Below, in pieces: positions 18,663-40,274 of a stretch of DNA of 64,000 nt (position 1 is the first letter of the stretch; each line of letters opens with the position of its first letter). This DNA is from Alphaproteobacteria bacterium (GTDB taxonomy: Bacteria; Pseudomonadota; Alphaproteobacteria; Caulobacterales; Parvularculaceae). The position numbers and the translations under genes are program-made. A model generated the notes under the pieces. That model was not told the origin of the DNA. It did no database searches and saw only the letters and a program-made list of their open reading frames with translations. The stretch covers positions 62,849 through 126,848 of the forward strand of contig JAUIMC010000009.1 of assembly GCA_030433215.1 (NCBI GenBank), given 5' to 3'.

Positions 18663-18769
18663 GTGGCCCGAGACCCGTTCGATCGGGATCACATCCACCG
18701 CCATGATTTTTGTTCGAACCGCCGGTTCCGTCACTCCACTCCACAAAACCATGTTGCAGGCGAGTGCGG

Positions 18770-22162: not shown

Positions 22163-22198
22163 GGTGATCTTTCTTGTTTGCCATCATGCGCCGGCTGA

Positions 22199-23530
22199 TC
22201 ATCCTGCCTTATCAATTGCGCGCCTTACCTTCTCAAAAGTCATGGCGATATCGCCTGGCTTGGCGTTCAGGAAGGGCGAGAACTGCAGGATATCCCCGCC
22301 ATTGCGAATGACGAGTTCTTCCTCCCAGAAACATATCTTGTGAACATCGAGACCGCGCGCGCCGGGCGCGTTCGGCCGCGGCGCCAATTCAACCGCTCCC
22401 ATAAGCCCGAAATTACGAATATCGACCACGTTTGGGTGGTCGGCTAACTCGTGGATCATTTCTTCAAAGACAGGCTCAAGCGCGCGCGCCTCTTCGAATG
22501 TTCCCTCGTCATTATATGTTTCAAGAGCGGCAAGGCCTGCGGCGGCGGCGACCGGGTGTCCCGAATAGGTATAGCCGTGAAAGAACTCCGGCAGATGCGC
22601 TGGCCCCTGACAGATGGCGTCATATATCTCTTGTTTGACCAACACGGCGCCCATGGGGATCGCGCCATTGGTGAGGCCCTTGGCCGTCGTGATGATATCG
22701 GGTGTGACGCCGAAGCGTTCAGCCGCAAAGCTCGCGCCGACCCGCCCGAAGGCGGTGATGACTTCATCGAAGATAAGAAGAATGCCGTGCTGGTCGCAAA
22801 TCTCTCTTAAGCGTTTTAAATAACCAGCAGGCGGCGGGAGGATGCCGGTCGACCCCGCAACAGGCTCGACGATGACGGCGGCGATGGTTTCGCCGCCATG
22901 GCGTTTGCAAAGAGCGGCTAAATCATCGGCAAGATGAGCCCCCCATTGGGGTTCGCCCTTTGAATAGGCGTTATGCTCCAGATTGTGTGTGTGCGGCAGG
23001 TGGCTGACATTCGGCAACAGGCTCGATTGAAACGCAGCGCGATTGGCGGGAATGCCGCCTACGGAAAGCCCCCCGAAATTGACCCCGTGATAGCCGCGCT
23101 CCCGGCCGATGAAGCGCGTGCGGCGCTTTTCATCTTTTGCTTGATGATAGGCGAGCGCGATTTTAAGCGCCGTATCGGCGGCCTCTGATCCGGAATTAGC
23201 AAAAAAGACCGCGTCAAATCCTTCCGGCGCCAGAGCCGTCAATCGTTCAGCCAGCGCAAACGCCTTGTCATTGCCCATTTGGAAACTCATGGCGTGATCG
23301 AGGGTCATGCTTTGCCGCGCGATCGCTTCGGTGATCTTCGGGTGACAATGGCCAAGGCCCGTCGTCCACAATCCCGAAAAGCTGTCATAGACCCGCCGGC
23401 CGTCACTGGTGAAGTAGTAATGGCCTTCCGCGCCAGTGAGAATACGCGGCGCGCGCTTAAAATCACTGTTCGCCGTAAACGGCATCCAGTGTGCTTGAAG
23501 GCCGCCGGTGAAATGATCAAAACCGTCCAA
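22199..23530 (-). CDS. Class III PLP omega-amino acid:pyruvate aminotransferase
   Basis: HWMPFTAN, SGSEAADTALK, GYHGVNFGG, EPVAGSTG, LLIFDEVITAFGR, TTAKGLTNG, HGYTYSGHP. Confidence 0.92.
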   Translation of the reverse strand: MDGFDHFTGGLQAHWMPFTANSDFKRAPRILTGAEGHYYFTSDGRRVYDSFSGLWTTGLGHCHPKITEAIARQSMTLDHAMSFQMGNDKAFALAERLTALAPEGFDAVFFANSGSEAADTALKIALAYHQAKDEKRRTRFIGRERGYHGVNFGGLSVGGIPANRAAFQSSLLPNVSHLPHTHNLEHNAYSKGEPQWGAHLADDLAALCKRHGGETIAAVIVEPVAGSTGILPPPAGYLKRLREICDQHGILLIFDEVITAFGRVGASFAAERFGVTPDIITTAKGLTNGAIPMGAVLVKQEIYDAICQGPAHLPEFFHGYTYSGHPVAAAAGLAALETYNDEGTFEEARALEPVFEEMIHELADHPNVVDIRNFGLMGAVELAPRPNAPGARGLDVHKICFWEEELVIRNGGDILQFSPFLNAKPGDIAMTFEKVRRAIDKAG

Positions 23531-23711
23531 AAATCGATTTCCTTCTTTGTAATCATCTGGAAGCGTTGCATTTGCACGCTTTATAAAAATGACGCGGGGT
23601 TCAGTCTCTGACGCTGGCCCGATCCATTCCGCTCAGCAAGGACGTCCAAAGATCACCGTTGCATTGTTTAGAGTGCAAACAGATGAATAGGCGATTTTTA
23701 CGACCGCTCTT

Positions 23712-25142
23712 TTAAATGGATACGCTTGGCTTTCTATCCCGCCACGGCATGGCGTGTTCCAATTGGCCCGCCAGCTGGAACAGCGTGGCTTCGTCACCAT
23801 GCGGCGCCGCAAACTGCACGCCTACCGGCAATCCCGCTTCTGAATGATGTAGCGGCAGCGAGATGGCCGGTTGGCCGGTCACATTGAATATTGGCGTAAA
23901 GGCCGCATACTGACCTAGCATACGGTCAAGCCAAACAGACGCGGTCAAATCCGGGGCATTGGCGTCAAGTTCACCCAAGGGCAAAGCGGGCCGGGTGCAG
24001 ACCGGGCTGATGAACACGTCATAGTCCATAAAGAAGGCGCCAACCTTCCGGCAGATTGCAGCCAGCCCGTCAAGATTGCGCGTGAAGTCCAGCATGGTTA
24101 GCTGTTGCGCATGGGCCAGCATGGCCATGCTGCCCGTCTCTCTTGTGTCGGGCCCGCAACGAAGGCCAGTCGCTTTCTCTAATATCTCCATCGAATAAGG
24201 GTATCTGTAGCTCCATAAATCCAGAAACGCCTCCATGAAGGGTTCCCAGTCATAGGGCAGCGTAACCTCTTCGATGCCGTGCCCCATCTCTTCACACATT
24301 TTGGCTGAAGCCAGCACGCCGTTCACACAGTCCGGGTGCACAGGCGCGCCGGACGGACTTTGAGTGGTAAAGCCGATTTTCAACGGCCTGGGTGCAATCG
24401 ACACTTCCTCAAGGTATGGCCTTGCCGGAGGGGGAGGGGTGTAGATATCTCCGACCACCGAACCCTGGATGCAGTCCAGCATGACTGCAGTATCGCGCAC
24501 ACTGCGTGACACCACATGATTGACGTAGGGCAGGAAGACAATTTCCTGGGGGGAAGGAGTGCGCGAACGGGTTGGTTTCAGCCCCACAACGCCGCAACAC
24601 GCTGCGGGAACTCGAATAGACCCGGCGCCATCGGTGGCGTGGGCCAGCGGCGTCACGCCTGCAGCCACTGCGGCGGCGCCGCCGCCGCTTGATCCGCCGG
24701 GCATGGCGTCCGTATCCCAAGGATTGCGCGTCGGGCCATGTAATACGGACTCGGTGGTCGTGGCGTTACCTTGCTCGGGCGCGGTCGACTGGCCGACGAG
24801 AGTCACGCCAGCCTTGCGAAACCGTGTGGTGAGTTCGTCATCTTCGGTCGCGATACGCCCCACGCCAAGGCGGCTGCCCATATTCCAGGGCTGGCCCTTG
24901 ATAGCGGCGCCGCCTTCTTTCATGAGAAAAGGAACGCCATATAACGCACCGCATGTGCTTTCATCCAGGAGTGGCCCTTCTTCCGCAACCGGAATGTCAT
25001 GAGCCAGGAAATTCAAAATCGGGTTTGCCGCTGCAATCGCTTCTCGCGCCAGGGCGCTTAGTTCTTGCGCAGTGATATCTTTATTGCGAACAAGCTCAGC
25101 AAGACCGACGGCGTCATAACTAGCATACTCTTTCAGGTTCAC
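23712..25142 (-). CDS. Amidase-signature family amidase
   Basis: GVPFLMKE (Lys), PGGSSGG, ATDGAGSIRVPAACCG, PIFNVTGQPAISLP; GTG start with RBS. Confidence 0.92.
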   Translation of the reverse strand: MNLKEYASYDAVGLAELVRNKDITAQELSALAREAIAAANPILNFLAHDIPVAEEGPLLDESTCGALYGVPFLMKEGGAAIKGQPWNMGSRLGVGRIATEDDELTTRFRKAGVTLVGQSTAPEQGNATTTESVLHGPTRNPWDTDAMPGGSSGGGAAAVAAGVTPLAHATDGAGSIRVPAACCGVVGLKPTRSRTPSPQEIVFLPYVNHVVSRSVRDTAVMLDCIQGSVVGDIYTPPPPARPYLEEVSIAPRPLKIGFTTQSPSGAPVHPDCVNGVLASAKMCEEMGHGIEEVTLPYDWEPFMEAFLDLWSYRYPYSMEILEKATGLRCGPDTRETGSMAMLAHAQQLTMLDFTRNLDGLAAICRKVGAFFMDYDVFISPVCTRPALPLGELDANAPDLTASVWLDRMLGQYAAFTPIFNVTGQPAISLPLHHSEAGLPVGVQFAAPHGDEATLFQLAGQLEHAMPWRDRKPSVSI

Positions 25143-25699
25143 TCTATTTTTTCCTTCTGATTCGAAATTCTTGATGCACTGAGCATGTTGCTGAATTCAT
25201 CACTCAAAGGCGTGTGTTCAGCGATGTTCGCCGCCCTATCGATGGCGCGATCGACAATTTTGGGAGGCGCGAGCGAGGCTTCACGGATTTTAGTCCCGTC
25301 GCGGAGGTTAGCGCCGGCGCCGTTATGCCTTCTCCGGATGCTGACGGGGCGCTGATGGAGTGACCTGAACTCCCCAAAATTCGAATCCCTATCCTGTAAT
25401 AATCTGTATGCTGTGCAATAAATCACGTTGTAAAAGGCAGCTGTTCCCAGTCTCTTGCGCCGGCCTTACCCCCTTCAGAGAGATGTAAGGCGCGGCTTGA
25501 AACGGGAGGGCCATCCCGCCCCGTTTGGAGCGTTCAACAAAGCCCCGTCAGACGCTACGCTAGAGGCGGCTTTTGGTGTTAAGCAATCCGTTATTTTCGG
25601 ATTCGTAAGTTATTGATTTTATGAGGCTCTCGTATATTTTGTTTAGGATACTAAACACGCTTTACACCGGTTTGCCGCCGCCTTCTGAAAAGGAATTGC

Positions 25700-26269
25700 A
25701 TGATGCCCGTCTGGCAAAAAGACGACGATCTCGTCCGGCGCTTAAAGGACATTCGCGCCGCGCACGGCCTCTCCCAGCGCCAGCTTTCGCAGCGTTCAGG
25801 GGTTTCCAACGCCACGATTTCGCAAATTGAATCCGGCGCGATGAACCCGACTGTTGGCATGCTGAAGAAAGTGCTCTCCGGCGTGCCCATAAGCCTTGCA
25901 GAATTCTTCACCTATGAGAGCGGCGATGGAGCGGAAAAAGTTTTCTACAGCGCGAGCGAACTTATTGAGATTTCGAAAGGCGGGGTTTCCTATCGACAAG
26001 TCGGCGGCAACCTTAAAAACAAGGCGATTCAGCTGCTGAAGGAACGCTACGAGCCCGGCGCCGATACAGGTCGTCATGCGCTTTGTCATGAAGGCGAAGA
26101 ATGCGGGCTTGTCCTTTCTGGGCGCCTCACCGTTACCGTCGCCGGCAAGTCGCGGACGCTCAAAGCCGGCGACGCCTACTACTTCAAAAGCGACCAGCCC
26201 CACGCCTTCAAAAACGAAAGCCGCGAGGTTTGCGAGCTCATCACCGCCTGCACGCCGCCCAGTTTTTAA
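25700..26269 (+). CDS. XRE-HTH + cupin regulator (PuuR/PauR-like)
   Basis: LSQRQLSQRSGVSNATISQIE...SLAEFF; HEGEECGLVLSG, GDAYYF...PHAFKN; divergent from the amidase/aminotransferase genes. Confidence 0.88.
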   Translation: MMPVWQKDDDLVRRLKDIRAAHGLSQRQLSQRSGVSNATISQIESGAMNPTVGMLKKVLSGVPISLAEFFTYESGDGAEKVFYSASELIEISKGGVSYRQVGGNLKNKAIQLLKERYEPGADTGRHALCHEGEECGLVLSGRLTVTVAGKSRTLKAGDAYYFKSDQPHAFKNESREVCELITACTPPSF

Positions 26270-27101: not shown

Positions 27102-29621
27102 ATGAGACATATTCCGGGGACAGCATCATTGCGTCTTTCTCGCGCTTCTCTGCTGGGCGCGACGGCGCTTGGCGCTGCGGCGTTTTTCACGGCGCCGGCC
27201 ATGGCGCAGGATGACGATGTCGCCGACGGCGCGCAGGACGTCATCGTCGTCACCGCGCAGTTGCGCGAGCAAAGACTCGATGACATTCCGCTTTCGATTT
27301 CGGCGGTCAGCGGTGATCTGCTCGAAGCCCGCAGCCAGACAAGCCTGCCTGAAATCACGCACCAGTTGCCGAACCTGCTGCTGCAGCAGAACCCGTCAGG
27401 CAGCGGCAACTCCATGCGGGCCTTTATCCGCGGCGTCGGCCAGTCCGACCGCAGTCCGTCCGTCGAGCCCGGCGTCGGCATTTATATCGACGATGTTTAT
27501 TTCGGCACGGTCACGGCCTCGGCTTTCGACCTTATCGACCTCGACCGCATCGAGGTGCTGCGCGGCCCGCAAGGCACGCTGGCCGGCATGAACTCCCAGG
27601 GCGGCGCCATCAAGCTCTATTCGCGCAAGCCCGAAGGCGAGGGCGGCTTCGTCTCCATCACCGCCGGCACCATGGGCCGCCGCGACGTCACGGCGAGCGC
27701 GGACTTCACGGTTGTTGAAGATCTGGCCTTCGCCCGCATCACCGGCATCACCCGCAACAAGGACGGGCATGTCACGCTTTACAACTACGCCTGCCTCAAT
27801 CCGGACGATCCGGACGTCATCTCCGGCGCGATCCCGGGGCTGATTTCGAGCGGCGACTGCAAAAGCGGCGAGCTCGGCAATCAGGAAATGTACGCCGTGC
27901 GCGGCGCGCTTCGCCTGACGCCGGGCGACGGCCGGCTCGAAGTCAACATTATCGGCGATTACACCAAGGACGATTCCAACACCCAGGCTTCCGTCCTTAT
28001 CGCTTCGGGCGAGTCCGCTACCGTCGGCAATGAAAGCGGCTATCTTGATCGCTCAGGTTTCAGCATTCCTTATCAGGGCGTTGCTTATGACGACCGTTTC
28101 GTGCCTTACGGCCAGTTCCGCCGGTCGGATTCGGTGCTGAACGATCCTTATGCGTCCTATGCCAACTTCTACGATCCGGGCGTGACCTATGAAGCCATCA
28201 GCCCGCAGGTGGGCCCTCCGTCTTCTGTTATGGCAGGCGAGTCGAATGGCCCGTTCATCGCAATCAACGGCTCCCGGGTCGAGGCTTGGGGTATTTCCGG
28301 CACGATCGATTACGAACTCAGCGAGAATCTCGAGCTGAAATCGATCACCGGCTACCGTTCCTACACGTCCGAAAGCGGCAACGACAACGACAACTCGCCC
28401 GTCGTCTACATTCAGACGTCAGACTGGTATGAACACGAGCAGTTCAGTCAGGAAGTTCGCCTCAATGGCAGCCTGTTCGAAGACACAGTGTTCTTCACGG
28501 TGGGCGGCATCTACTATGACGCCAGCACGCGTCCGCTGTCGCGCATCCACACGCCGTTCTCCGGCTTCGGCCCGGCGGACCGGCCGACCTTCTCGTTCCT
28601 CAATGACGATACGTCGGACATGACGGTTTACGCCGGCTTCGCCAACGTGGCGTGGGACATCACCGATGCGCTCACCGTCGAAGGCGGCGTCCGCGTCACG
28701 GACGAGACCAAGGACTACACCTTCGGGCGTCTCAATCCGGACGGGCGCAGCGACTACCTGCCGCTCAGCAACCCGTTGAACCAGCTCACCGGCTTTACGG
28801 ACACCTATGCGGAGACGATCACCGACTATCGCGCGGTCGCTTCCTATAATTTCAGCCCTGATCTGATGGCGTATTTCCAGTTCGCCACGGGTCACAAAGC
28901 CGGCGGCATCTCGCCGCGTCCCTATAACGTGTTCCAGATCCGTCCTTTCGGGTCGGAAAAACTGCAGTCTTACGAAGTCGGCTTCAAAGCCGCTGCGCTT
29001 GACAGCAGGGTCCGCATCAACGCCGCGGCCTTTTATATGAACTATAAGGGCTATCAGGGCATTCCCGATTTCTGTATCGACGAGAATGGCGATCGGGTCG
29101 ACATGAACCCCCGCGGGCTTTGCGGCCAGTATCTGAACCTTGCCGACGCGACGGTGCAGGGTTTCGAACTGGAAGCCTTCCTTGAGCCGGTCGATAATCT
29201 GAACATCGACGCCATGCTCAGCTTGACCGATTTCGAATTCGGCGAGCCGACCTATGACACGACGTCTGTCGTCGAAGGCGCGGACCGTCCGGGCATCGGC
29301 GAGTGGAAGTGGAGCATCGGCGCTCAGTACATGTTCGATCTCGGCAATTCCGGCACGATCACGCCGCGCGTCGACGTGTCGTACATTCCGGAATATTGCG
29401 GCAACTTCGCCTGCGACCCGAATGCGTTCGTGGAGAGCTACACGCTCGCCAACGCCCGCATCACCTATCGCAGCGCGGACGAGAAATGGTCCGTGGCGCT
29501 TCAGGCCACGAACCTCACCGACGACTACTACTTCCTGAACAAGTTCACGAACGGGTTCTACGCCACCGGCCAGCCGGGCCGGCCGCGCGAATTCGCAGTG
29601 ACGGTTCGCCGCAACTTCTAA
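27102..29621 (+). CDS. TonB-dependent receptor
   Basis: AGGGAGG RBS before ATG 27102; signal peptide; DVIVVTAQLR TonB box; DRIEVLRGPQGTLAG; C-terminal GRPREFAVTVRRNF. Confidence 0.95.
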   Translation: MRHIPGTASLRLSRASLLGATALGAAAFFTAPAMAQDDDVADGAQDVIVVTAQLREQRLDDIPLSISAVSGDLLEARSQTSLPEITHQLPNLLLQQNPSGSGNSMRAFIRGVGQSDRSPSVEPGVGIYIDDVYFGTVTASAFDLIDLDRIEVLRGPQGTLAGMNSQGGAIKLYSRKPEGEGGFVSITAGTMGRRDVTASADFTVVEDLAFARITGITRNKDGHVTLYNYACLNPDDPDVISGAIPGLISSGDCKSGELGNQEMYAVRGALRLTPGDGRLEVNIIGDYTKDDSNTQASVLIASGESATVGNESGYLDRSGFSIPYQGVAYDDRFVPYGQFRRSDSVLNDPYASYANFYDPGVTYEAISPQVGPPSSVMAGESNGPFIAINGSRVEAWGISGTIDYELSENLELKSITGYRSYTSESGNDNDNSPVVYIQTSDWYEHEQFSQEVRLNGSLFEDTVFFTVGGIYYDASTRPLSRIHTPFSGFGPADRPTFSFLNDDTSDMTVYAGFANVAWDITDALTVEGGVRVTDETKDYTFGRLNPDGRSDYLPLSNPLNQLTGFTDTYAETITDYRAVASYNFSPDLMAYFQFATGHKAGGISPRPYNVFQIRPFGSEKLQSYEVGFKAAALDSRVRINAAAFYMNYKGYQGIPDFCIDENGDRVDMNPRGLCGQYLNLADATVQGFELEAFLEPVDNLNIDAMLSLTDFEFGEPTYDTTSVVEGADRPGIGEWKWSIGAQYMFDLGNSGTITPRVDVSYIPEYCGNFACDPNAFVESYTLANARITYRSADEKWSVALQATNLTDDYYFLNKFTNGFYATGQPGRPREFAVTVRRNF

Positions 29622-29640
29622 CTTGCGGAAAACGCACGCG

Positions 29641-29671
29641 GCGGGAGAGGTCTTGCACGACCTCATCCCGC
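29641..29671 (+). terminator. Intergenic hairpin (terminator or mRNA-stabilising stem)
   Basis: GCGGGA-GAGGTC-TTGCAC-GACCTC-A-TCCCGC after the TBDR stop; no strong U tract. Confidence 0.4.
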
Positions 29672-29780
29672 CGCGCCTTACTCGACCCACGATAATTTAA
29701 AGACTCCCGTCTGGCCGCATGCGGCAAACCCCGCGTTATCCATAAGTCGGCGGACAGGGCGCAGTTTCGGGAGAAGACGC

Positions 29781-30887
29781 ATGAAGATGGACCGTCGCAC
29801 CTTGCTGGGAGCGGCTTCCGCCAGCGCCGCTGCAGGCGTTCTTGGCGGGGCGGGTTCCGCCGCCGGGGCCGCGCCGAAGGACCAGATCCGCATCGGCGTC
29901 GAAGAAGCCTTCTCAACCCAGGAACACATGAAAGCGATGCGCGATTTTGTCGACGCGCATCCGGAAGTGACGCGCTTCGATTACAAATTGTGGCGCATGA
30001 TCACCTCGAACCTGAAGGCGGACACGCCGCGCAGGCTGCTCGACTTAGCCGATATGCGTCTGAAGGAAATGGACGAGTATGGCGTGACCATGCATGTCCT
30101 TTCGCTGACCTCGCCCGGCGTGCAGATGCTCGATCCGGATGTGGCGGTGGGCGTCGCGCAAAGCGCCAATGACGAACTCGCCGAAGTGATCGCCCGTCAC
30201 CCCACGCGCTTTGGCGGTCTTGCGACCATAGCCCCGCAGGAGCCGGAAAAGGCGGCGTCGGAGATCGAACGCGCCAAGACGAAGCTGAAGCTCAACGGCG
30301 TCGTCATCAATTCCCACACCAACAACGAATATCTCGATAATCAGAAATTCTGGCCGATCCTCGAGGCTGCCGAGGCGATGGACATGCCGATCTATATCCA
30401 TCCGCGCACGCCTTCGGACCAGATGCGCGCGCCCTTCGACGACTACAATATGGGCAGCGCCTTCTGGGGCTACGGCATGGAGACGTCGACCCATTTCGTG
30501 CGCCTGATGATGAGCGGCGCCTTTGACCGGTTCCCCAAGCTGACGACCGTCCTTGGCCATATGGGCGAGGCCGTGCATTTCTGGATCTGGCGTCTCGATT
30601 ATATGAGCGCGCCGGGCGTTGCGCGCGGGGAAACGCCGATCAAGCTTCTGCCCAGCGAATATCTGCGCCGCAATCTGCGCATCACCACCAGCGGACAGGA
30701 AAACCCGGCGGCGCTTCGTTACTCCATCGACGTCCTGGGCGCGTGGAACGTGATGTGGGCGATCGACTATCCCTATCAGGAAATGCCCTCCGCGGTGCGC
30801 TTCATGGACAATGCGCCGCTGACGCAGGAAGAGCGCGACGCGGTCTACTGGAAGAACGCCGCCCGCACTTTCAACATCGACCTTTAG
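29781..30887 (+). CDS. ligW: Tat-signal LigW-like non-oxidative aromatic acid decarboxylase (amidohydrolase_2)
   Basis: DRRTLLG Tat signal; IGVEEAF, LSLTSPGVQM, INSHTN, IYIHPR, FWGYGMETST, LGHMGEA..FWIWRLDY, NVMWAIDYPYQ, all matching 5-carboxyvanillate decarboxylase LigW as recalled. Confidence 0.82.
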   Translation: MKMDRRTLLGAASASAAAGVLGGAGSAAGAAPKDQIRIGVEEAFSTQEHMKAMRDFVDAHPEVTRFDYKLWRMITSNLKADTPRRLLDLADMRLKEMDEYGVTMHVLSLTSPGVQMLDPDVAVGVAQSANDELAEVIARHPTRFGGLATIAPQEPEKAASEIERAKTKLKLNGVVINSHTNNEYLDNQKFWPILEAAEAMDMPIYIHPRTPSDQMRAPFDDYNMGSAFWGYGMETSTHFVRLMMSGAFDRFPKLTTVLGHMGEAVHFWIWRLDYMSAPGVARGETPIKLLPSEYLRRNLRITTSGQENPAALRYSIDVLGAWNVMWAIDYPYQEMPSAVRFMDNAPLTQEERDAVYWKNAARTFNIDL

Positions 30888-30923
30888 AACCCGCGCCAGG
30901 CAGAGCGCAAAGGAGAAGCCGTC

Positions 30924-32051
30924 ATGCATCGCAGGAATCTTTTGGGACTAGCGGGCGCCGCCGGGGCCGCCGCCATGCTGCCGGGCGTGGCGCGGGCGCA
31001 AAGAAGCCTCGAGGAAGGTCTTCCCGTGCCGACGGGCAATTATCGCCGCATCGGCACGGAGGCGGCTTTTGCGACCCAGCCCCAGCTCGAAGCGTTTCGC
31101 GCCGTGCGCAAATATCTCGAAGACAGCCCGGAACTCGCCTTCGCCGGCATTCTCCTCGGCGACAACGCCTACGCCAAGGATATGACCCCGCGCCTTCTCA
31201 ATATCGGCGAAGGGCGGATCGCGGAAATGGATTCGGACGGCGTCGCGATGCAGGTCTTGTCGCTGACCTCGCCGGGGGTTCAGATTTTCAGCGCCGACAC
31301 GGCGACGGCCGTCGCGCGCGAAAGCAACGACATTCTCGCCGAGGCGATCCGCAAGAACCCGTCGCGCTTCGCCGGCCTCGCGGCCATTGCCCCGCACGCG
31401 CCGGAAGAGAGCGTCAAGGAGATGGAGCGGGCGGTCAACAAGCTCGGCCTGAACGGCTTCATCGTCAATTCGCACACCGACGGCGAATATCTCGACCAGG
31501 AAAAATTCTGGCCGATCCTCGAAGCCGCCGAAGCGCTCGACCGGCCGATTTACATTCATCCGCGCACCTTGCCGAAAGAGGCGCTCGGGCCCTTCAACGC
31601 CTATGGCCTGCAAGGCGCGTCCTGGGGGTTTGCGGTGGAGACGGGCACCCACGGCATGCGCCTTTTGTTCAGCGGCGCCTATGACCGCTTCCCGGGACTG
31701 AAAGTCGTCCTCGGCCATATGGGCGAGGGCATTCCTTACTGGGTCTACCGTTTCGATCACATGTATGAAAAAGCCAAAGCCAATTGGGGCACCGGCGGGC
31801 TCAAGGAAAAGCCGAGCCATTACCTCAAGCGCAATATGATGATCACCACCAGCGGCATGTTCTCCGAGCCCGTGCTGAAATACTGCATGGAAGTGATCGG
31901 CGCGGACAACATCATGTGGGCGGCGGATTATCCGTATCAGGCCAATCGCGAAGCGGGCGTTTTCCTCGACGCTGCGGATATTTCCGAAGACGAGAAAGTC
32001 AAGATTTACTCAGGCAACGCTGAGCGCGTCTTTCACCTTAGAAAAGGCTGA
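30924..32051 (+). CDS. Second Tat-signal LigW-like decarboxylase
   Basis: MHRRNLLG Tat signal; IGTEAAF, LSLTSPGVQ, VNSHTD, IYIHPR, LGHMGEG, IMWAADYPYQ; tandem paralogue of 29781-30887. Confidence 0.8.
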   Translation: MHRRNLLGLAGAAGAAAMLPGVARAQRSLEEGLPVPTGNYRRIGTEAAFATQPQLEAFRAVRKYLEDSPELAFAGILLGDNAYAKDMTPRLLNIGEGRIAEMDSDGVAMQVLSLTSPGVQIFSADTATAVARESNDILAEAIRKNPSRFAGLAAIAPHAPEESVKEMERAVNKLGLNGFIVNSHTDGEYLDQEKFWPILEAAEALDRPIYIHPRTLPKEALGPFNAYGLQGASWGFAVETGTHGMRLLFSGAYDRFPGLKVVLGHMGEGIPYWVYRFDHMYEKAKANWGTGGLKEKPSHYLKRNMMITTSGMFSEPVLKYCMEVIGADNIMWAADYPYQANREAGVFLDAADISEDEKVKIYSGNAERVFHLRKG

Positions 32052-32179: not shown

Positions 32180-33112
32180 TTATTGCGCGCCGGTCTCCCA
32201 GGGCGTCGGCATGTAATAAGGCAGCGAAGTCGCCACGCCTTCGGCGCGCACCACCGTATCGCCCTCGATCTTCACAAGCTCGGCCACAAGCCGGCTCATG
32301 GGATAGGGGCGTTGCAGCGTCGCCGTTTCGCCGCCCACCGTCGGGAAGGTCGCCTGCTCGGCGGGCAGGTCCTGCACGCTGATGGCGAGCACGAGGCCGC
32401 GGCTGCGGTCGACCACAGGAAAGCGCCGGTCGCGAATGCGGTTCACCGGGGCGAAGAGGCCCGCTTCGAAAGCGGACGCGCAATGCGGTTCCGGCGGCGT
32501 TACATCGAGCTCCGCCGAGGTGATCGCAACGCCGTTCTCCACCATCTCGCAGGACGGCGCGAAGTCGGCGAGGAGGGCGCCGTTATTGCGCTGCTTGGTG
32601 GCGAGATAGGCGTTGGCGAGGTCGACGAGACGCTCGCGCGAACGCCGGTCGCCCCGCGAGACGGTTTGCGTCATCTCTGGCGAGATTGCGAACTCGGTCG
32701 CCTCGCCGAACGGCATCGGCCAGCGCTCGCGCGCCGCGATGACTTCGATCTCTTCGATGTCGCCTCTGGGGGCTTTCAGCCGGACGGCGCCGAAGGACGC
32801 CTCGTCATGGTCCCAGATCGTGCCGAACCACACGACATTGCCGGTTTCGGTGTCGGCCATCGCAAAGGCTTTCTGACCGGTGTCTTCGCCGGCCGATCCC
32901 CACCAGCCGTCGCCGATCATCAAGGAGACGTTGTTTTCGGTGAACAGCACCGGATCGGCCCAGGGGAGGCGGCGAAATTCCTGGTCGCCGATGGCGTCCA
33001 GCGTTTCGTCAGCCAGTTTCAGAAGGCAGGACTCGTTGCAGCGCTGGGCGGCTGCGGGCGCGGCGACGACAAGCGCGGCGGCGCCGGCGAGGAGAGCAGT
33101 AAGTTTCCGCAT
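32180..33112 (-). CDS. Secreted uncharacterised CxxxCL-family protein, type beta (NTF2-like fold suspected)
   Basis: Start ATG 33112 overlapping the upstream TAA; signal MRKLTALLAGAAALVVAAPAAA; CNESCLL, LPWAD...TENNV, RIRDRRFPVVDRSRGLV, LPYYMPTPW. Confidence 0.8.
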   Translation of the reverse strand: MRKLTALLAGAAALVVAAPAAAQRCNESCLLKLADETLDAIGDQEFRRLPWADPVLFTENNVSLMIGDGWWGSAGEDTGQKAFAMADTETGNVVWFGTIWDHDEASFGAVRLKAPRGDIEEIEVIAARERWPMPFGEATEFAISPEMTQTVSRGDRRSRERLVDLANAYLATKQRNNGALLADFAPSCEMVENGVAITSAELDVTPPEPHCASAFEAGLFAPVNRIRDRRFPVVDRSRGLVLAISVQDLPAEQATFPTVGGETATLQRPYPMSRLVAELVKIEGDTVVRAEGVATSLPYYMPTPWETGAQ

Positions 33113-34086
33113 TATTTGTCTCCTTCCGCCCAGGGCGAATGCATCCCGTAGGGCACGTAATCGAAGATCGCCTCGATGGTGTAGATCTCGCCGTCGATGA
33201 TCTTGAAGGCTTCCATGATGGTCAGCGAGTTGGGCCATTTCAGCAGGGTCTTCATGGTGCGCCCGTCTGTCAGCTCATACTCGTCGAAGGTGTTGGCGTG
33301 ATCGAAGAAGTTCATGCCGACGACAATGCCGCGCTCTTCATCGATGATCGGGTAGCGCCGTTCGCGCAACTCCTTGTTGATGCGGTAAATGCCGAGCTTG
33401 AACTGGGCCTCGCAGCCCTCGGCGACCGACGCCGAGTTATTCGAGTTTTCGGTCGCGGCCGTTGTCGAGATGCCGTTTTCTAGGCGTGAACAATCTTCCT
33501 TGAAATCCGCGAAGACCTGGCCGTTGTTGAATTCGACAGTATTGAAATAGGAATCGGCGACGGCGCGCAGGCGCGGGCGCGGGCGGCGTTGCTCTTCGGT
33601 GAGGGCTTCGGTCCAGGCCGGGTGATGCGGCTCCTTGCCGGTGCCGTGGATCAGCGGCATGCCGGTGATGCGCGCGATCACTGTTTCGGCCTCGCTGATC
33701 TCGTGTTCCTTGTTCACATGAAGACGGATGGCGAGAAAGACCAGCTTGTCATGTTCATAGGCGTGGCCGAACCAGGCGACATTGCCGGTCAGCGTGTCGG
33801 AAGCGATCATGCCGTCATCCGGGGCGGCCGCGCTCACTGTCGCCCACAACCCCTTGCCGATCGGCATTTCGACGCTGTTTTCCGTGAACTTGATGTCTTC
33901 GGAAAAGTCAGCCTGCGACGGGTCCTTGGCGTTAAGCGCCGCAACATAGGATTTGGCGAAAGATTCAAGGCAGGCGCGGTCGCAATCGCCGCGAGGCAGC
34001 GCGCTTTCCTTTCCGTAAGATTGCGCCGCCGCAGGGGCGGCGGCGGCGAGGCCCAATGTGAGGGCCGCCAGCGCATGACGCAGCAT
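33112..34086 (-). CDS. Secreted uncharacterised CxxxCL-family protein, type alpha (possibly DUF8021; label unverified)
   Basis: Signal peptide; CDRACL, FTENSV, RLENG, CEAQFKLGIY, RERRYPIIDEERG, FFDH, WPNS, EAFKI, YVPYGMHSPW. Confidence 0.82.
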   Translation of the reverse strand: MLRHALAALTLGLAAAAPAAAQSYGKESALPRGDCDRACLESFAKSYVAALNAKDPSQADFSEDIKFTENSVEMPIGKGLWATVSAAAPDDGMIASDTLTGNVAWFGHAYEHDKLVFLAIRLHVNKEHEISEAETVIARITGMPLIHGTGKEPHHPAWTEALTEEQRRPRPRLRAVADSYFNTVEFNNGQVFADFKEDCSRLENGISTTAATENSNNSASVAEGCEAQFKLGIYRINKELRERRYPIIDEERGIVVGMNFFDHANTFDEYELTDGRTMKTLLKWPNSLTIMEAFKIIDGEIYTIEAIFDYVPYGMHSPWAEGDK

Positions 34087-34284: not shown

Positions 34285-34812
34285 ATGCGCAAAATCTTGA
34301 TGACGATGGTCTTCAGCATGCTGGCGATTTCCTGTGCGCCGGACGGTCAGGGAACGGCGCTCGAAGAGCGCGTGCGCCGGCTTGAGGACGAGAAAGAGAT
34401 CCGCGCGCTGCTGGTGCGCTATGGCGAATATCTCGATGCGAAGGATTACGCCGGCTACGCCTCGCTCTTCGCCAGCGACGGCGTGTCGACCACCGGCTTC
34501 GGCAGTGCAACAGGACCGGCGGCCATCGAGGTGCTATTGGAAGAGAATATGGGCGCGCCGCCGCCCGGCTATATCAATAAGGACCGGCTCCACCTGATGA
34601 CGACCATGATTGTCGATGTCTCGGGCGATGCTGCGACCGCGCAGTCGCGCTATACGGTTTTCGATAAATCCGAGGGAGGACGGCCTGTCCCTTTGCATGC
34701 CGGACGATATGCGGACGTGCTTGTGCGCGAAAACGGGGCGTGGAAACTGAAATCACGGACTTCGGCCGGCGTCATTCCCTACCGGGCGCCGCCGCAAGCC
34801 GGTAAAAACTGA
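34285..34812 (+). CDS. SnoaL_4/NTF2-like lipoprotein (short type)
   Basis: Lipobox LAISC; RLEDEKEIRALLVRYGEYLD, RLHLMTT, GRYADVLVRENGAWK. Confidence 0.85.
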   Translation: MRKILMTMVFSMLAISCAPDGQGTALEERVRRLEDEKEIRALLVRYGEYLDAKDYAGYASLFASDGVSTTGFGSATGPAAIEVLLEENMGAPPPGYINKDRLHLMTTMIVDVSGDAATAQSRYTVFDKSEGGRPVPLHAGRYADVLVRENGAWKLKSRTSAGVIPYRAPPQAGKN

Positions 34813-34910
34813 GAAAGGCCGGCCCTTGTGGCGCAAGTCTGGGGTTCTCTCACGGCAATGAACTGCACAGGGCGAGGACGGACAAACGAAGCTTGGGAAT
34901 ATCTGGAGAG

Positions 34911-35504
34911 ATGACGATGCGGACTGCATTTCTGGCTATCGCTTTCGCCCCGCTCATGGCGGCCGCCTTGCCGGCCTGTTCGGCGGGCAACGCTGCGAAT
35001 GAAGAACTCGCGCAGCGCGTCCAGGCGCTTGAAGACGAAAAAGAGGTCAAGCGGGTGCTGGTCGAATATGGCGAGTTCCTCGATGCGCGCGACTATCATG
35101 CCTATGCGTCGCTCTTCGCCAGCGACGGCGTCTGGAGCGGCGGCTTCGGCACCTATACGGGGCCGGCGGCGATCGAGGCCATGCTCGAAGAAAATATGGG
35201 TTCCCATGCGGATGATTACATCAACAAGGAAAATTTCCACCTGAACACGACCATGGTCGTCGATGTGGACGGCGACACGGCGAAAGCGCGCTCGCGTTAT
35301 CTGTTCTTCGTCGCCTCGCCGGAAAACCGGCCTGTGGTCGCGCTCGCAGGGCGCTATGAAGACGTTTTGGTCCGCGAGGACGGGGCCTGGAAAATCAAGA
35401 CCCGCAAATCCCATGGCGTGATCCCTTACCGGGACGGCAACAAGCCGCCCCCGGCCCAGCCCCCGGCGGACATCAGCGACGCCCTGGACCGGGACCAGGA
35501 CTGA
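34911..35504 (+). CDS. SnoaL_4/NTF2-like lipoprotein (short type), tandem paralogue
   Basis: Lipobox LPAC; ALEDEKEVKRVLVEYGEFLD, NFHLNTT, GRYEDVLVREDGAWK. Confidence 0.85.
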   Translation: MTMRTAFLAIAFAPLMAAALPACSAGNAANEELAQRVQALEDEKEVKRVLVEYGEFLDARDYHAYASLFASDGVWSGGFGTYTGPAAIEAMLEENMGSHADDYINKENFHLNTTMVVDVDGDTAKARSRYLFFVASPENRPVVALAGRYEDVLVREDGAWKIKTRKSHGVIPYRDGNKPPPAQPPADISDALDRDQD

Positions 35505-36387: not shown

Positions 36388-37377
36388 ATGAGAAAATTCC
36401 TCAACAACCCCGCCGACGCCGTCGATGAAAGCCTGCGCGGTTTTGCGCGTTGCCATGCCGATCTCGTGGAGCTCGTGGAGCGGCCGCGTTACGTCAAACG
36501 TCAGCGCCTGACGCAAGGCAAGACGGCGATTATCTCCGGCGGCGGATCGGGTCATGACCCGCTTCACGCCGGGCTCGTAGGGCGCGGCATGCTCGACGCG
36601 GCTGTGCCGGGCGAAATTTTCTCCTCGCCGTCAGTAGAACAGATCCTGGCGGCGGCGGAAGCGGTCGGCGGCGAGGCGGGGCTTTTGTGCCTCATCAAGA
36701 ATTATTCCGGCGACATCATGAATTTCGAACTTGCGATGGAGATGTTCGACCGGCCCCATGCGAGCGTCATTATCGAAGACGATATCGGCGCGGCGGGCGG
36801 CGATGACACGGTTGGCCGGCGCGGCGTCGCCGGCACGGTCGTGGTCGAAAAGCTCGCCGGGGCCGCCGCTGAACGCGGCGAGGGGCTCGAGGCCTGCGCC
36901 GAGATCGCGCGCCGGGCTGCGGCGGCGACGCGCACTATCGGCGTGGCGCTCGGCGGCTGCCAGGTTCCGTCCGCGGACAAGGCCAACCTTGAGCTTGCGC
37001 CCGGCGAGATGGAAATCGGCATCGGCATTCATGGCGAGCCCGGGCGGCGGCGCGCGCCCATCGCGCCGGCGAATGAGATCGTCGAGGAGCTTATCGAGGC
37101 GCTCATCGCCGATTTTTCTCCGTCTCCTGACGATCCGCTGCTGCTGTTCGTCAACGGGCTCGGCGGAACCCCGCCCATGGAAACCTATATCATCTACGAT
37201 GCGGCGGCGCGCATGCTGGCGGCGCGGGGACTGACCGTCGCCCGCTCGCTCGTTGCGCCGCTGGTGACTTCGCTCGAAATGCCGGGGGCGTCGATTACGC
37301 TGACGAAGATGGAGGACGGGTTCCTCGATCTCTGGGACGATCCGGTGGTGACGCCGGGACTGAGATGGGGCGCATGA
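36388..37377 (+). CDS. dhaK: PEP-dependent dihydroxyacetone kinase subunit K
   Basis: SGGGSGHDPLHAG, GEIFSSP, KNYSGDIMNF, GRRGVAG, EIGIGIHGEPG, TSLEMPGASIT. Confidence 0.92.
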   Translation: MRKFLNNPADAVDESLRGFARCHADLVELVERPRYVKRQRLTQGKTAIISGGGSGHDPLHAGLVGRGMLDAAVPGEIFSSPSVEQILAAAEAVGGEAGLLCLIKNYSGDIMNFELAMEMFDRPHASVIIEDDIGAAGGDDTVGRRGVAGTVVVEKLAGAAAERGEGLEACAEIARRAAAATRTIGVALGGCQVPSADKANLELAPGEMEIGIGIHGEPGRRRAPIAPANEIVEELIEALIADFSPSPDDPLLLFVNGLGGTPPMETYIIYDAAARMLAARGLTVARSLVAPLVTSLEMPGASITLTKMEDGFLDLWDDPVVTPGLRWGA

Positions 37378-38027
37378 GCCTCGCGCAATCCCATAATCCC
37401 GCCGAGAATACCGGCGCCGCGCTCGAGCTGCTCGACGTGCTTTGCACTCTGTTGCTTGGCGCCGAAGACGAGCTCAACGGGCTCGACCGCGCTATCGGCG
37501 ACGGCGACCATGGCGGCAATCTCGCCCGCGCGTCGCGCAGCCTGTCAGAGCTTCGTCCCGAACTCGCTGAGCTTTCCATGGGCGAGGCCGTGACGCGCGC
37601 CGGCCGCGCGGTGGTGATGAGCGTCGGCGGCGCTTCGGGCCCGCTTTACGGAACCCTGCTGATGGAAATGGGCAAGGCGCTGCCTGACGAGCCGGGGCCT
37701 GGCGACTGGGCCGCGGCTTTTGCGGCGGGCGTCGACGGCGTCGCCCGGCGCGGCCGCTCCGCTGAGGGCGACAAGACCATGCTCGATGTGCTCGCGCCGG
37801 CGTCGCGCGCGCTTTCGGAAGAAGCGTCCGCAGATTTGCACGAAGCGCTCGCGGCGATGCGCGCGGCGGCGGAAGACGGCTTTGAAACATCGCGCGGCTT
37901 GCGCGCGAAACGCGGACGCGCCGCCTATGTGGGCGAGCGGTCCGTCGGACATGACGATCCCGGAGCGCGGTCGGCGCTGTTGTGCGTCGGTGCGGTTGCA
38001 GATTTTTTAGGGGAGAACAAGGGATGA
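37374..38027 (+). CDS. dhaL: Dihydroxyacetone kinase ADP-binding subunit L
   Basis: LDRAIGDGDHGGN, VGGASGPLYG, GDKTMLDV, RGRAAYVGERSVGHDDPGA; ATGA overlap with dhaK. Confidence 0.92.
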   Translation: MSLAQSHNPAENTGAALELLDVLCTLLLGAEDELNGLDRAIGDGDHGGNLARASRSLSELRPELAELSMGEAVTRAGRAVVMSVGGASGPLYGTLLMEMGKALPDEPGPGDWAAAFAAGVDGVARRGRSAEGDKTMLDVLAPASRALSEEASADLHEALAAMRAAAEDGFETSRGLRAKRGRAAYVGERSVGHDDPGARSALLCVGAVADFLGENKG

Positions 38028-38410
38028 GCGTGGCGCTTCTCATCGTTTCGCATTCCGCCGACGTCGCGCGCGGCACGGCGGATATGGCCCGGCAGATGGC
38101 CGGCGCCGATTTGTCCATCGCCTGGACCGGCGGCAATCCCGATGGCGGTCTCGGCACGAGCCTCGCCGCGATTACCGAACAGCTTGAAGCCGTCTGGCGG
38201 GAGGAAGGCGTCGCCATTCTGGTCGATGTCGGCGGCGCGGAGATGAATTCCGAAATGGCCATCGAACAGTTCGACAAGGCGAAAGCGAAGAAAATCCGGA
38301 TATGTCAGGCGCCGCTGGTGGAAGGCGCGATCATGGCGGCGGCGGAAGCGGCGTCCGGCGGCGGCCTCGACCAGGTGTGCCGCGCAGCAGAGGAATTTTC
38401 GCACGCGTGA
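38024..38410 (+). CDS. dhaM: DHA kinase phosphotransferase subunit (EIIA-Man-like)
   Basis: LLIVSHS (phospho-His), GG..DGGLGTS, LVDVGGA, APLVEGA. Confidence 0.9.
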   Translation: MSVALLIVSHSADVARGTADMARQMAGADLSIAWTGGNPDGGLGTSLAAITEQLEAVWREEGVAILVDVGGAEMNSEMAIEQFDKAKAKKIRICQAPLVEGAIMAAAEAASGGGLDQVCRAAEEFSHA

Positions 38411-38412
38411 CC

Positions 38413-38730
38413 ATGTCGAGTTCTCAGCCTTGCGATGCCGAATGGAGGCAAGCCACCCTGACCGTCGTCGGGGCGCATGGTCTTCATGCGCGTCCCGCGA
38501 TCCGGTTTTCCCGCGTCGCGAGGGGGTATTCCGCGCGCATTCAGATCTGCGTCGCGGACGATGCGCGCTGGGTTGACGCCAAGAGCGTGGCGAAGGTGAT
38601 GGGCCTTCAGGTCGAGTCGGGCAGGAAAATTCTATTGCGTGCGGCCGGGGACGACGCCGAGGCGGCGCTGGCGGGCCTGCGCCAACTGATCGAGACGGAC
38701 CTCGCCGGCGAAGGCGAAGATGGCGGATGA
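38413..38730 (+). CDS. ptsH: HPr phosphocarrier
   Basis: GLHARPA (phospho-His), VDAKS, LRAAGDDAEAAL. Confidence 0.9.
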   Translation: MSSSQPCDAEWRQATLTVVGAHGLHARPAIRFSRVARGYSARIQICVADDARWVDAKSVAKVMGLQVESGRKILLRAAGDDAEAALAGLRQLIETDLAGEGEDGG

Positions 38731-40274
38731 CTCGGCTCCCGGGAAAGGTCGCGTCGCAGGGCGTCGCCTCCGGAACGCTGCGGCGCGACGCTGTGGCCGC
38801 GCGGAGCGCAGGCAGGCCTGCTGACAGCGTGGCAGGCGCCGTTATCGAAGCGGCATGGCAGTTGCGCGCGCTGCAAGCCGCCGCGACTAGTCTGGGTTCG
38901 GACATTCTCGAATTTCAACTCGCCCTGCTTGAGGATGACGGGCTTGTCCTCGAAATGGTCCAGAAGGGCGCCGCGCATGGCGATGCCGCGCGCGCCATCG
39001 CCGAGGTTCTGGAAGAGCAGATCGCATCCTATCGCGCTGCGGCGGATGCGCGGTTTGCGGCGCGCGCGGCCGACCTTGAGGATCTCAAAAGCCGTCTTCT
39101 CGGCGCGCTGAAAGGCGCGGCGGCGCCGGCAAGGGCGCTCCCTGCGGGCACGATCCTCATTGCAGAAGAGATGACGCCGAGCCGCTTTCTTGAGCTCGAC
39201 CGCGCGAAAATCGCCGGAATCGTTGATCAGAAGGGCAGCGAGACGAGCCATGTCGCCTTGCTGGCGCGCGCGGAAGGCGTGCCTATGCTGGTCGCCGCCG
39301 GGCCTGTCGCGGCGGAATGGGAATCGCGTCCCGCCCTGCTCGATGCGGCGCACGGGGAGCTTGTCCTCGATCCCGATGCGGCGCTCATCCGCGATCGCGC
39401 CGGTCAGGCTTCTGCACAGGATGTTCCGTCATCGGAAGGCGAAGGACCGGCGGTTCTGTCCGATGGCGAAACGGTGCGGGTCAATCTCACCGTTAATGCG
39501 CTCGCGAGCCTAGACGAGGCACCGCCCGAATGGTTCGACGGCATCGGTCTCGTCAGGACCGAGCTCTTGATTACCGATGCGGAAGAAGTTCTGAACGCCG
39601 GGCGTCAGGCGAGCCTCTACCGGCCGCTGTTCGACTGGGCGCGGGAAAAGCCGGTGACCATCCGCCTGCTCGATGGCGGCGGCGACAAACAGGTGCCCGG
39701 CTATGCGCCGCCTCCGGGCGGCGGCGGTTTTCTCGGCGTGCGCGGCGCACGGCTTTTGATGCGGCGCGGCGATGTCCTGCGCGCGCAGCTCGCGGCGATC
39801 CTTGACGCCGCGGAAGGCCGGCCGGTGCGAATCATGGCGCCCATGATTACCTTGCCGGAGGAGATGCGGTTCTTCAGAACGGAGCTTGACCGCGCCATAG
39901 ACGCGTCCGGGGCGGACCGGGTGCAGGCGGCGCTGGGCATGATGGTGGAAACCCCCGCCGCGGCGCTCGACATCGATCGTTTCGATGCGGATTTCTTCGC
40001 TCTCGGCACGAATGATCTCGCGCAATATGTCCTGGCCGCCTCGCGCGACAGCGAGGCTTTGCCGCTTGGCGGGGAAATCCCGCCGGCGGTGCTTGAGCTT
40101 GTTCGGCGGGTCGTCGAACATGGCAGGAATAAAGGGCTTGCGGTGTCCGTTTGCGGCGATGTCGCGGCGTCTGAGGAAAGCCTTGGGCGGTTTCTCGCCT
40201 GCGGGGTGCGCTCTTTCAGCATCCCTTCGCGGTTTGCGCCCCGCTTCAAGCAGTATATCAGGACAGGGCTGTGA
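38727..40274 (+). CDS. ptsI: PTS Enzyme I (PEP-protein phosphotransferase)
   Basis: GSETSHVALLARA (phospho-His), GIGLVRTE, RLLDGGGDK, LGVRGARL, GMMVETP, GTNDLAQY, VCGD. Confidence 0.9.
   Translation: MTRLPGKVASQGVASGTLRRDAVAARSAGRPADSVAGAVIEAAWQLRALQAAATSLGSDILEFQLALLEDDGLVLEMVQKGAAHGDAARAIAEVLEEQIASYRAAADARFAARAADLEDLKSRLLGALKGAAAPARALPAGTILIAEEMTPSRFLELDRAKIAGIVDQKGSETSHVALLARAEGVPMLVAAGPVAAEWESRPALLDAAHGELVLDPDAALIRDRAGQASAQDVPSSEGEGPAVLSDGETVRVNLTVNALASLDEAPPEWFDGIGLVRTELLITDAEEVLNAGRQASLYRPLFDWAREKPVTIRLLDGGGDKQVPGYAPPPGGGGFLGVRGARLLMRRGDVLRAQLAAILDAAEGRPVRIMAPMITLPEEMRFFRTELDRAIDASGADRVQAALGMMVETPAAALDIDRFDADFFALGTNDLAQYVLAASRDSEALPLGGEIPPAVLELVRRVVEHGRNKGLAVSVCGDVAASEESLGRFLACGVRSFSIPSRFAPRFKQYIRTGL

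Follow-up and report, generated by a model that had tools for sequence, protein, structure and literature searches.

In which compartment do two LigW-like decarboxylases act, whose genes follow each other directly behind a gene for an outer-membrane receptor and whose N-termini resemble twin-arginine export signals? The question is raised by a stretch of 64,000 nucleotides, in the following called the window, from contig JAUIMC010000009.1 of an alphaproteobacterium of the Parvularculaceae (assembly GCA_030433215.1, positions 62,849 to 126,848). A sequence-only reading had placed two such genes in the window, and by open reading frame (ORF) listing and translation both were found exactly where they had been reported. 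The first, at 29781..30887 (+), encodes LigWa (P0001, 368 aa), a homolog of the LigW-family Mn-type non-oxidative decarboxylases; the second, at 30924..32051 (+), encodes LigWb (P0002, 375 aa), another homolog from a different clade. We consider it rather probable that LigWa and LigWb are periplasmic LigW-type decarboxylases, exported by the twin-arginine translocation (Tat) pathway, which belong to a conserved gene module and act on ortho-hydroxy aromatic acids. The LigW-type reaction, so far known from the cytoplasm only, would then probably take place in the periplasm, beside an outer-membrane import channel. Export, metal, decarboxylation, substrate class and the order of steps are what we infer from the sequence data.

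LigW-Family Membership and Active Site

Both proteins match Amidohydro_2 (PF04909) over the whole mature protein and above the 26.4-bit cut-off, with E values of 8e-40 (LigWa) and 3e-43 (LigWb). Among all PDB sequences the best relative of either protein is the 5-carboxyvanillate decarboxylase LigW of Sphingobium sp. SYK-6 (4icm), with an E value of 1e-104 and 55% identity for LigWa and of 6e-94 and 45% identity for LigWb. LigW and LigW2 of Novosphingobium aromaticivorans come next (LigWb versus 4inf: E 1e-83), whereas the resorcylate, dihydroxybenzoate and salicylate decarboxylases and α-amino-β-carboxymuconate-ε-semialdehyde decarboxylase (ACMSD) are far weaker relatives (E 1e-60 to 1e-17). 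LigWa and LigWb are 49% identical to each other.

In the N. aromaticivorans numbering the Mn ligands of LigW are Glu19, His188 and Asp314, of which Asp314 is the general acid, and a single Glu takes the place of the HxH motif found in other Amidohydro_2 members (PMC8187880). Arg58, Phe212, His241, Arg252 and Tyr317 complete the pocket (PMC8187880; PMC6031855). The metal ligands that the sequence-only reading had named are present as E41/H207/D329 in LigWa and E46/H212/D335 in LigWb, and the equivalents of His241, Arg252 and Tyr317 are H260/R271/Y332 and H265/R276/Y338, respectively. The counterparts of Glu19, His188, His241, Arg252, Asp314 and Tyr317 are invariant across 41 orthologs of both clades, while the position of Phe212 is occupied by Tyr in LigWa and SYK-6 LigW and by Phe in LigWb. 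An AlphaFold2 (AF2) model of LigWa reached a mean predicted local distance difference test score (pLDDT) of 87, with a disordered N-terminus (residues 1-27, pLDDT < 50) and a confident barrel, for which Foldseek returned LigW 4l6d as the top match (template modeling (TM) scores 0.85/0.93, root-mean-square deviation 2.3 Å). With all tested LigW catalytic residues in place and a LigW-like fold, the assignment to LigW-family enzymes with an intact catalytic set holds, and by family both would be Mn-type decarboxylases, most likely with Mn2+.

Twin-Arginine Leaders

The LigWa precursor begins with MKMDRRTLLGAASASAAAGVLGGAGSAAGAAPKDQIRIGVEEAF and that of LigWb with MHRRNLLGLAGAAGAAAMLPGVARAQRSLEEG...YRRIGTEAAF. 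In LigWa the putative Tat leader comprises residues 1-30 (29781..29870, +), has an Ala/Gly/Ser h-region, of Kyte-Doolittle about 1.0-1.3 in clade A, and a predicted cleavage site A-G-A↓A-P, and can be laid out as MKMD-RR-TLLG-AASASAAAGVLGGAGSAAGAA-PKDQ, with the metal-binding Glu as residue 41. The leader of LigWb covers residues 1-25 (30924..30998, +) and reads MH-RR-NLLG-LAGAAGAAAMLPGV-ARA-QRS, where LAGAAGAAAMLPGV is the h-region, cleavage is predicted at A-R-A↓Q and the metal-binding Glu is residue 46. The DRRTLLG and HRRNLLG motifs, which had been taken for twin-arginine leaders, are supported as genuine by the sequence evidence: the RR pair is invariant in 20/20 clade-A and 21/21 clade-B orthologs. 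Over 15 residues the h-regions of the two window proteins have Kyte-Doolittle values of 1.16 and 1.42; those of the orthologs are likewise Ala/Gly-rich and mildly hydrophobic (about 0.5-1.6). The cleavage site follows the pattern A-x-A↓x-P among clade-A orthologs and A-[RQ]-A↓Q among those of clade B, and a basic c-region residue is present in LigWb and in many orthologs. Pfam TAT_signal profiles matched 25 of the 41 orthologs at E <= 0.1. Among the orthologs the identity amounts to 0.55-0.61 in the leader and to 0.77-0.81 in the mature part, and such faster divergence of the leader is what one would expect if it worked as a signal peptide.

Both start codons are preceded by strong Shine-Dalgarno sequences, GGGAGAAG 5 nt upstream of the LigWa ATG and AAGGAGAA 7 nt upstream of the LigWb ATG. 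The use of downstream starts, which had been put forward as the circumstance that would speak against export, finds no footing in the alignments: no conserved downstream Met start preserves the metal-binding Glu. In LigWa the next Met comes only after Glu41, and the internal Met18 of LigWb is not conserved among the clade-B orthologs. Because of the strong Shine-Dalgarno sites, the invariant RR and the lack of a suitable downstream Met, the leaders do not appear to be start-codon artifacts. Leaderless relatives start 6-15 residues ahead of the metal-binding Glu, and the characterized LigW and LigW2 are likewise devoid of a leader, in agreement with the cytoplasmic contrast drawn in the sequence-only reading. 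A LigW without leader, 351 aa long and 75% identical to LigW of N. aromaticivorans (Saro_0799), is found in this very genome at G000:C31:32645-33700 (-), so that the leader is specific to the two paralogs. TatC (PF00902) is encoded in the genome as well (G000:C25, E 2e-63).

A documented precedent supports the assumed logic of Tat export for a Mn enzyme. MncA of Synechocystis, a periplasmic Mn2+ cupin whose metal is weakly binding, is exported in folded form by Tat, so that Mn2+ is taken up in the cytoplasm, before competing Cu and Zn are encountered (PMC8867077). Fold and function of MncA are unrelated to those of the LigW-like proteins, for which metal and export route are deduced. Within the cluster, neighboring exported proteins without a cofactor have Sec (general secretion) or lipoprotein signals and Tat signals occur only on the two metal enzymes, which fits the MncA precedent of Mn loading before export.

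Clades and Distribution of Leader-Bearing LigW Homologs

About 240 near homologs were collected with both queries, and 227 of them could be classified for the leader, which was found in 107 and missing in 120. In a tree built from the mature part only, with the leader columns left out, leader presence was strongly clade-structured (at least 18 changes), and none of 500 shuffles was as clustered. LigWa and LigWb fall into two separate, well-supported clades. The LigWa clade is composed of Tat forms throughout; of the 24 rows that make up the LigWb clade, 21 are Tat forms and the remaining three are truncated at the N-terminus. A recent tandem duplication was ruled out by the 49% identity of the pair together with the separate, well-supported clades; rather, LigWa and LigWb are members of two old clades that travel together. 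On every contig long enough to judge, the two clades stand in tandem (the window, L001, L002, L018, L025, L026, and L022). Other clades of Tat-LigW occur singly (L024, L027, and L028). Among more distant sequences, textbook leaders such as SRREFL, KRRTFLK and NRRDFLK were seen in about 25 of the best 150 cluster representatives at 50% identity. Tat-bearing LigW homologs are widespread in metagenomes.

The nearest named relatives of the proteins derive from Sphingomonadales/Sphingomonadaceae and from unclassified metagenome-assembled genomes (MAGs) of Alphaproteobacteria and Pseudomonadota. None of 24 genomes of the same genus contained an ortholog of either gene (best match 44-47% identical); other LigW-like and DUF8021 genes were present in 4 of the 24. 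Vertical inheritance in the genus is therefore unsupported, and the module is accessory. A contig scan of the genome collection yielded only two orthologous loci.

A second Amidohydro_2 subfamily with the HxH motif (IDVHTHMF) also has RR leaders (L020:8790-9866 (-), L029:4162-5262 (-), L031:4011-5087 (+)), and its genes adjoin TonB-dependent receptor and LigW-like genes in other organisms.

Literature searches on LigW and lignin-derived decarboxylases in combination with periplasm, twin-arginine or signal peptide revealed no description of an exported LigW-type enzyme, and a search on periplasmic decarboxylases returned nothing relevant. In a 2026 review of lignin-dimer pathways the periplasm is not mentioned (PMC12997858).

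Conserved Gene Neighborhood

The gene upstream of the pair (27102..29621, +) encodes a TonB-dependent outer-membrane receptor (TBDR) with Plug (PF07715) and TonB_dep_Rec_b-barrel (PF00593) domains, a probable start MRHIPG... and a Sec signal ...APAMA↓QDDD. Its end at 29621 lies 159 bp before the LigWa start, and the pair indeed follows the receptor gene directly, as had been noted from the sequence. LigWa and LigWb are co-directional, and the spacer of only 36 bp between them suggests that they are on one transcript. Just 3' of the receptor stop codon a GC-rich 16-bp hairpin without U tract is located (29637..29675, +); strand folding of the region gave a minimum free energy of -68.3 kcal/mol (z -3.3 versus shuffles), and a simple terminator scan did not call the hairpin. 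It may serve to stabilize, process or attenuate the transcript between receptor and decarboxylase genes. As to base composition, G+C is 0.50-0.57 at positions 6000-26000 versus 0.60-0.67 in the remaining window; the LigW cluster belongs to the higher-GC part and its third-position G+C of about 0.78 is the same as that of its neighbors.

The order TBDR-LigW-LigW is kept in six other assemblies. In the MAGs L001 and L002 and the metagenome contigs L018/19, L025, L026 and L022/23 the series TBDR, LigWa and LigWb is followed by two convergent DUF8021 genes, and in L001, L002, L018, L025 and L026 the TBDR orthologs immediately upstream of the pair are 69-81% identical to the window receptor. The window has the same two DUF8021 genes. 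U1 (32180..33112, -; start MRKLTALLAG...) is a secreted protein, likewise with a Sec signal, and a paralog of U2, with which it shares 31% identity; U2 (33112..34086, -) has the Sec signal ...PAAAQ↓S and a tandem NTF2-like fold. Start codon of U1 and stop codon of U2 overlap by 1 nt, which makes them a translationally coupled pair. The family assignment (PF26061) derives from precomputed annotation of the orthologs; U2 had no match in the Pfam copy searched, and a sequence search with DUF8021 against the PDB was without match. The AF2 model of U2 (pLDDT 83) consists of tandem NTF2-like domains, and its Foldseek matches included Lsd19, iota-carbonic anhydrase, MonBI/II and limonene epoxide hydrolase. 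Within each DUF8021 module, which is itself built as a tandem NTF2-like fold, a CxxxC close to the N-terminus is invariant, as are E-N, W, D and R positions. Fused U2-U1 forms are encoded in the window at 46231-48057 (-) and in L025 and L027. A literature search for DUF8021 gave nothing relevant.

DUF8021 genes stand beside 8 of 11 Tat loci and beside none of five leaderless loci, and in this small sample DUF8021 linkage appears to separate Tat from leaderless loci better than TBDR linkage does. The latter was rejected as a Tat-specific signature, because leaderless LigW homologs also occur near TBDRs (L031, L032). Genes for DUF8021, SnoaL_4, pyrroloquinoline quinone (PQQ) alcohol dehydrogenases (PQQ-ADH), RPE65 or TBDRs are found beside other Tat-LigW clades, too: L027 combines AraC, PQQ-ADH, Tat-LigW, SnoaL_4, a propeller, a fused DUF8021 protein and RPE65, L029 contains TBDR, Tat-LigW and DUF8021, and L020 a TBDR with several Amidohydro_2 genes. 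A different setting is seen at L024:10001-14716, where a Tat-LigW gene of another clade (P0157) precedes genes for a glyoxalase-fold protein, an S41 peptidase and a multicopper oxidase and has esterase genes in its vicinity; this locus is a further exported setting for phenol oxidation.

Two lipoproteins of the SnoaL_4 family (NTF2 superfamily) are encoded further on, at 34285..34812 (+; PF13577, E 5e-27; lipobox ...LAIS↓C) and at 34911..35504 (+; PF13577, E 5e-31; ...ALPA↓C). Orthologs of both are present in L001, L002, L018 and L026. Close kinship with a characterized NTF2 lyase was considered for these lipoproteins and dropped, as the PDB sequence search gave weak, uncharacterized matches only. 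Further downstream we found a DhaKLM-HPr-EI set, cytoplasmic and secreted SnoaL_4 proteins, a major facilitator superfamily (MFS) transporter and an AraC regulator; the cluster also includes two PQQ quinohemoprotein dehydrogenases, SGL-like propellers and an RPE65-type dioxygenase. The module is frequently found together with SnoaL_4 lipoproteins and PQQ dehydrogenases. SnoaL_4 genes are numerous in one 30-kb cluster of the window (34285-35504, 52503-54753, and 41297-45324, all +), and their occurrence in exported and cytoplasmic versions suggests parallel periplasmic and cytoplasmic sets. The genes for DhaK, DhaL, DhaM(EIIA), HPr and EI are located directly 3' of SnoaL_4 genes both in the window (36388-40274, +) and in the unrelated metagenome contig L018 (16490-20358), so that their linkage to the module is conserved. 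One idea is that NTF2-type lyase reactions release formaldehyde or a C3 fragment with which they deal. The genome holds five LigB-type dioxygenase genes, and just upstream of a gene of this type on contig C14 there are two further Amidohydro_2 genes.

Comparison with Characterized Systems

LigW and LigW2 of Sphingobium sp. SYK-6 and N. aromaticivorans (PDB 4icm/4l6d, 4inf/4qrn, 4qs5) share with LigWa and LigWb the Pfam family, the fold and the metal ligands, and in addition the general acid Asp, His241, Arg252 and the stacking Tyr317. Common to both settings are also a sphingomonad-like aromatic degrader and lignin-dimer enzyme families nearby. The differences concern the N-terminus, with a Tat leader of 25-30 residues here and a start only few residues before the metal-binding Glu in characterized LigW, as well as the arrangement: the window has a tandem pair from two clades within an exported module (TBDR, DUF8021, and lipoproteins), not among cytoplasmic lig genes. 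Moreover, the Arg58 position is uncertain in the pair, and an ordinary leaderless LigW is present in the same genome. The γ-resorcylate, 2,3-dihydroxybenzoate, salicylate and iso-orotate decarboxylases and ACMSD resemble the pair in the TIM-barrel amidohydrolase fold, the Asp general acid and the way in which the metal holds an ortho-hydroxy carboxylate in bidentate fashion, but they are far more distant (E 1e-60 to 1e-17 versus 1e-94 or better for LigW), and all characterized ones are intracellular. With the DdvT/DdvK system for the uptake of the lignin biphenyl 5,5'-dehydrodivanillate (DDVA) in SYK-6, in which a TBDR and an MFS transporter feed the cytoplasmic LigX, LigZ, LigY and LigW, the locus has in common the combination of TBDR, MFS transporter and a LigW-type step. 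In SYK-6, however, all catabolic enzymes including LigW are described as intracellular, whereas for the window we predict a LigW-type step in the space between inner and outer membrane.

Proposed Route and Candidate Substrates

In the route which we propose, LigWa and LigWb would fold and acquire their metal, most likely Mn2+, in the cytoplasm and would then be exported by the Tat pathway, with removal of the leaders by signal peptidase I. Substrates would enter via the adjacent TBDR, and the periplasmic targets would be phenolic acids with a carboxylate ortho to the phenolic OH. Candidates are 5-carboxyguaiacyl-type compounds, e.g., 5-carboxyvanillate and 5-carboxyferulate, or larger molecules with such a unit. 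The pair is envisaged to work together with the two secreted tandem-NTF2 proteins (DUF8021) and, in this organism, also with SnoaL_4 lipoproteins and PQQ quinohemoprotein dehydrogenases. The products could cross the inner membrane, for which an MFS gene is available in the cluster, and might then be taken over by cytoplasmic NTF2 enzymes, the RPE65-type stilbene dioxygenase, the leaderless LigW and LigB-type ring cleavage. The known β-1 and β-5 dimer routes draw on the families of NTF2 lyases (LdpA, PcfL), RPE65-type lignostilbene dioxygenases and LigW/LigW2, and in these routes LigW decarboxylates 5-carboxyvanillate and 5-carboxyferulate (PMC12997858).

With regard to the substrates that the sequence-only reading had suggested for assays, one has to be set apart on chemical grounds. 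LigW-type enzymes need an ortho phenol for bidentate Mn binding and the carboxylates of DDVA are para and not ortho to the phenol, so DDVA is an unlikely substrate. A wider interpretation is that TBDR, Tat-exported LigWa and LigWb, the DUF8021 pair, the SnoaL_4 lipoproteins and the PQQ dehydrogenases make up an unrecognized periplasmic catabolic compartment for condensed, C5-substituted lignin-derived or plant polyphenolic oligomers, in which decarboxylation and NTF2-type lyase steps trim the molecules before inner-membrane transport and DUF8021 is a new enzyme family beside the decarboxylases. This we offer tentatively, as a possibility on which we would not count.

Alternative Explanations

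Several observations weigh against periplasmic decarboxylation of 5-carboxyguaiacyl-type substrates. Neither window protein reached the cut-off of a Tat-signal profile: LigWa had no match to Pfam TAT_signal, LigWb reached 19.1 bits and thus stayed under the cut-off of 22.7 (PF10518/TIGR01409 profiles tested), and NCBIfam profiles gave no Tat-signal match for the two; the c-region of LigWa is also without a basic residue. TBDR linkage is not specific to Tat forms, as the leaderless homologs in L031 and L032 demonstrate. The RPE65-type dioxygenase is without signal peptide, which implies that the 5-carboxyferulate of the known β-5 route would be formed in the cytoplasm, within reach of the leaderless LigW; the substrate of the periplasmic pair is probably another 5-carboxy-substituted compound, perhaps a larger one. 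Finally, Arg58 (Arg45 in SYK-6) falls in a variable N-terminal insert in which MAFFT assigns Leu/Tyr, with a Lys one or two residues off, an alignment that is unreliable at this site. Its equivalent may be Lys or absent, so that the substrate may depart from 5-carboxyvanillate at its distal end. One step further, LigWa and LigWb could be exported but act on a non-lignin substrate or by other chemistry than 5-carboxyvanillate-type decarboxylation, for instance on 2,3-dihydroxybenzoate or resorcylates in siderophore or plant-phenolic breakdown, or as a hydratase or hydrolase like LigJ and LigY. The family does include γ-resorcylate, 2,3-dihydroxybenzoate and salicylate decarboxylases, hydratases and a C-C hydrolase as weaker solved relatives, the Arg58 position is neither conserved nor alignable, siderophore import is a common task of TBDRs, and among NCBIfam models the receptor fits the siderophore-receptor subfamily best, albeit far under cut-off. 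However, the similarity of both proteins to LigW (E 1e-94 to 1e-104, 45-55% identity) far exceeds that to any other characterized member (E 1e-60 or weaker), the LigW residues Asp314, His241, Arg252 and Tyr317 are all retained, and the neighbors in several clades are NTF2, RPE65 and PQQ-ADH genes instead of siderophore genes. We regard this explanation as unlikely, though one to be reckoned with.

The leaders themselves leave room for two further readings. If they were non-functional or if translation started downstream, LigWa and LigWb would be ordinary cytoplasmic LigW paralogs; the sub-threshold profile scores, Met18 in LigWb and a TTG codon at position 8 in LigWa could be cited for it. But RR and leader architecture are kept in 41/41 orthologs and in many other clades, the upstream ATGs have the strong Shine-Dalgarno sites, and neither Met18 nor the first Met of LigWa beyond Glu41 is a suitable start. 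As leaderless relatives begin 6-15 residues before the Glu, a functionless extension of 35-45 residues is hard to reconcile with this picture, and we hold a cytoplasmic location to be very improbable. Some Tat substrates retain an uncleaved N-terminal anchor, and enzymes of this kind would be fixed to the periplasmic face of the inner membrane. In LigWa the Pro after the obvious A-A site would indeed block signal peptidase I at that bond; one residue upstream, however, A-G-A↓A-P fits the -3/-1 rule and the A-x-A↓x-P pattern is seen repeatedly in clade A, the A-[RQ]-A↓Q site of clade B is a textbook one, and the Ala/Gly-rich h-regions, weakly hydrophobic with Kyte-Doolittle values of about 1.0-1.5, would be poor membrane anchors, so that we give little credence to anchoring. 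Export of LigWa and LigWb together as an obligate heteromer, on the other hand, would be a refinement of the favored explanation and not its opposite. It accords with the constant tandem arrangement of the two clades on sufficiently long contigs, with the 36-bp distance between genes that have their own Shine-Dalgarno sites, and with the treatment of LigW as a homodimer in hybrid quantum mechanics/molecular mechanics work, where intersubunit contacts lie within 15 Å of the metal (PMC6031855). Against it, leader and catalytic residues are complete in each of the two proteins, so that neither needs the other for export or catalysis, and the Tat-LigW clades in L024, L027 and L028 are single. Heteromer formation therefore seems to us possible rather than probable.

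Implications for Lignin-Dimer Catabolism

Periplasmic, Tat-exported LigW-type decarboxylation, the explanation which we favor, touches a common view of the field. Lignin-dimer catabolism in model strains is described as uptake by TBDR and MFS transporters followed by wholly cytoplasmic chemistry. Widespread LigW-type decarboxylases with Tat leaders, tied to receptors and secreted NTF2-fold proteins, suggest that part of this chemistry is periplasmic. If confirmed, this would change the assignment of substrates and transport steps in sphingomonad pathways and also the reading of LigW homologs from metagenomes, nearly half of the closest homologs having been found with leaders. Transplanting such a pathway into production hosts would then have to take account of the leader, the Tat capacity and Mn loading. 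The linkage to Tat-LigW, furthermore, offers a function-linked handle on the DUF8021 family.

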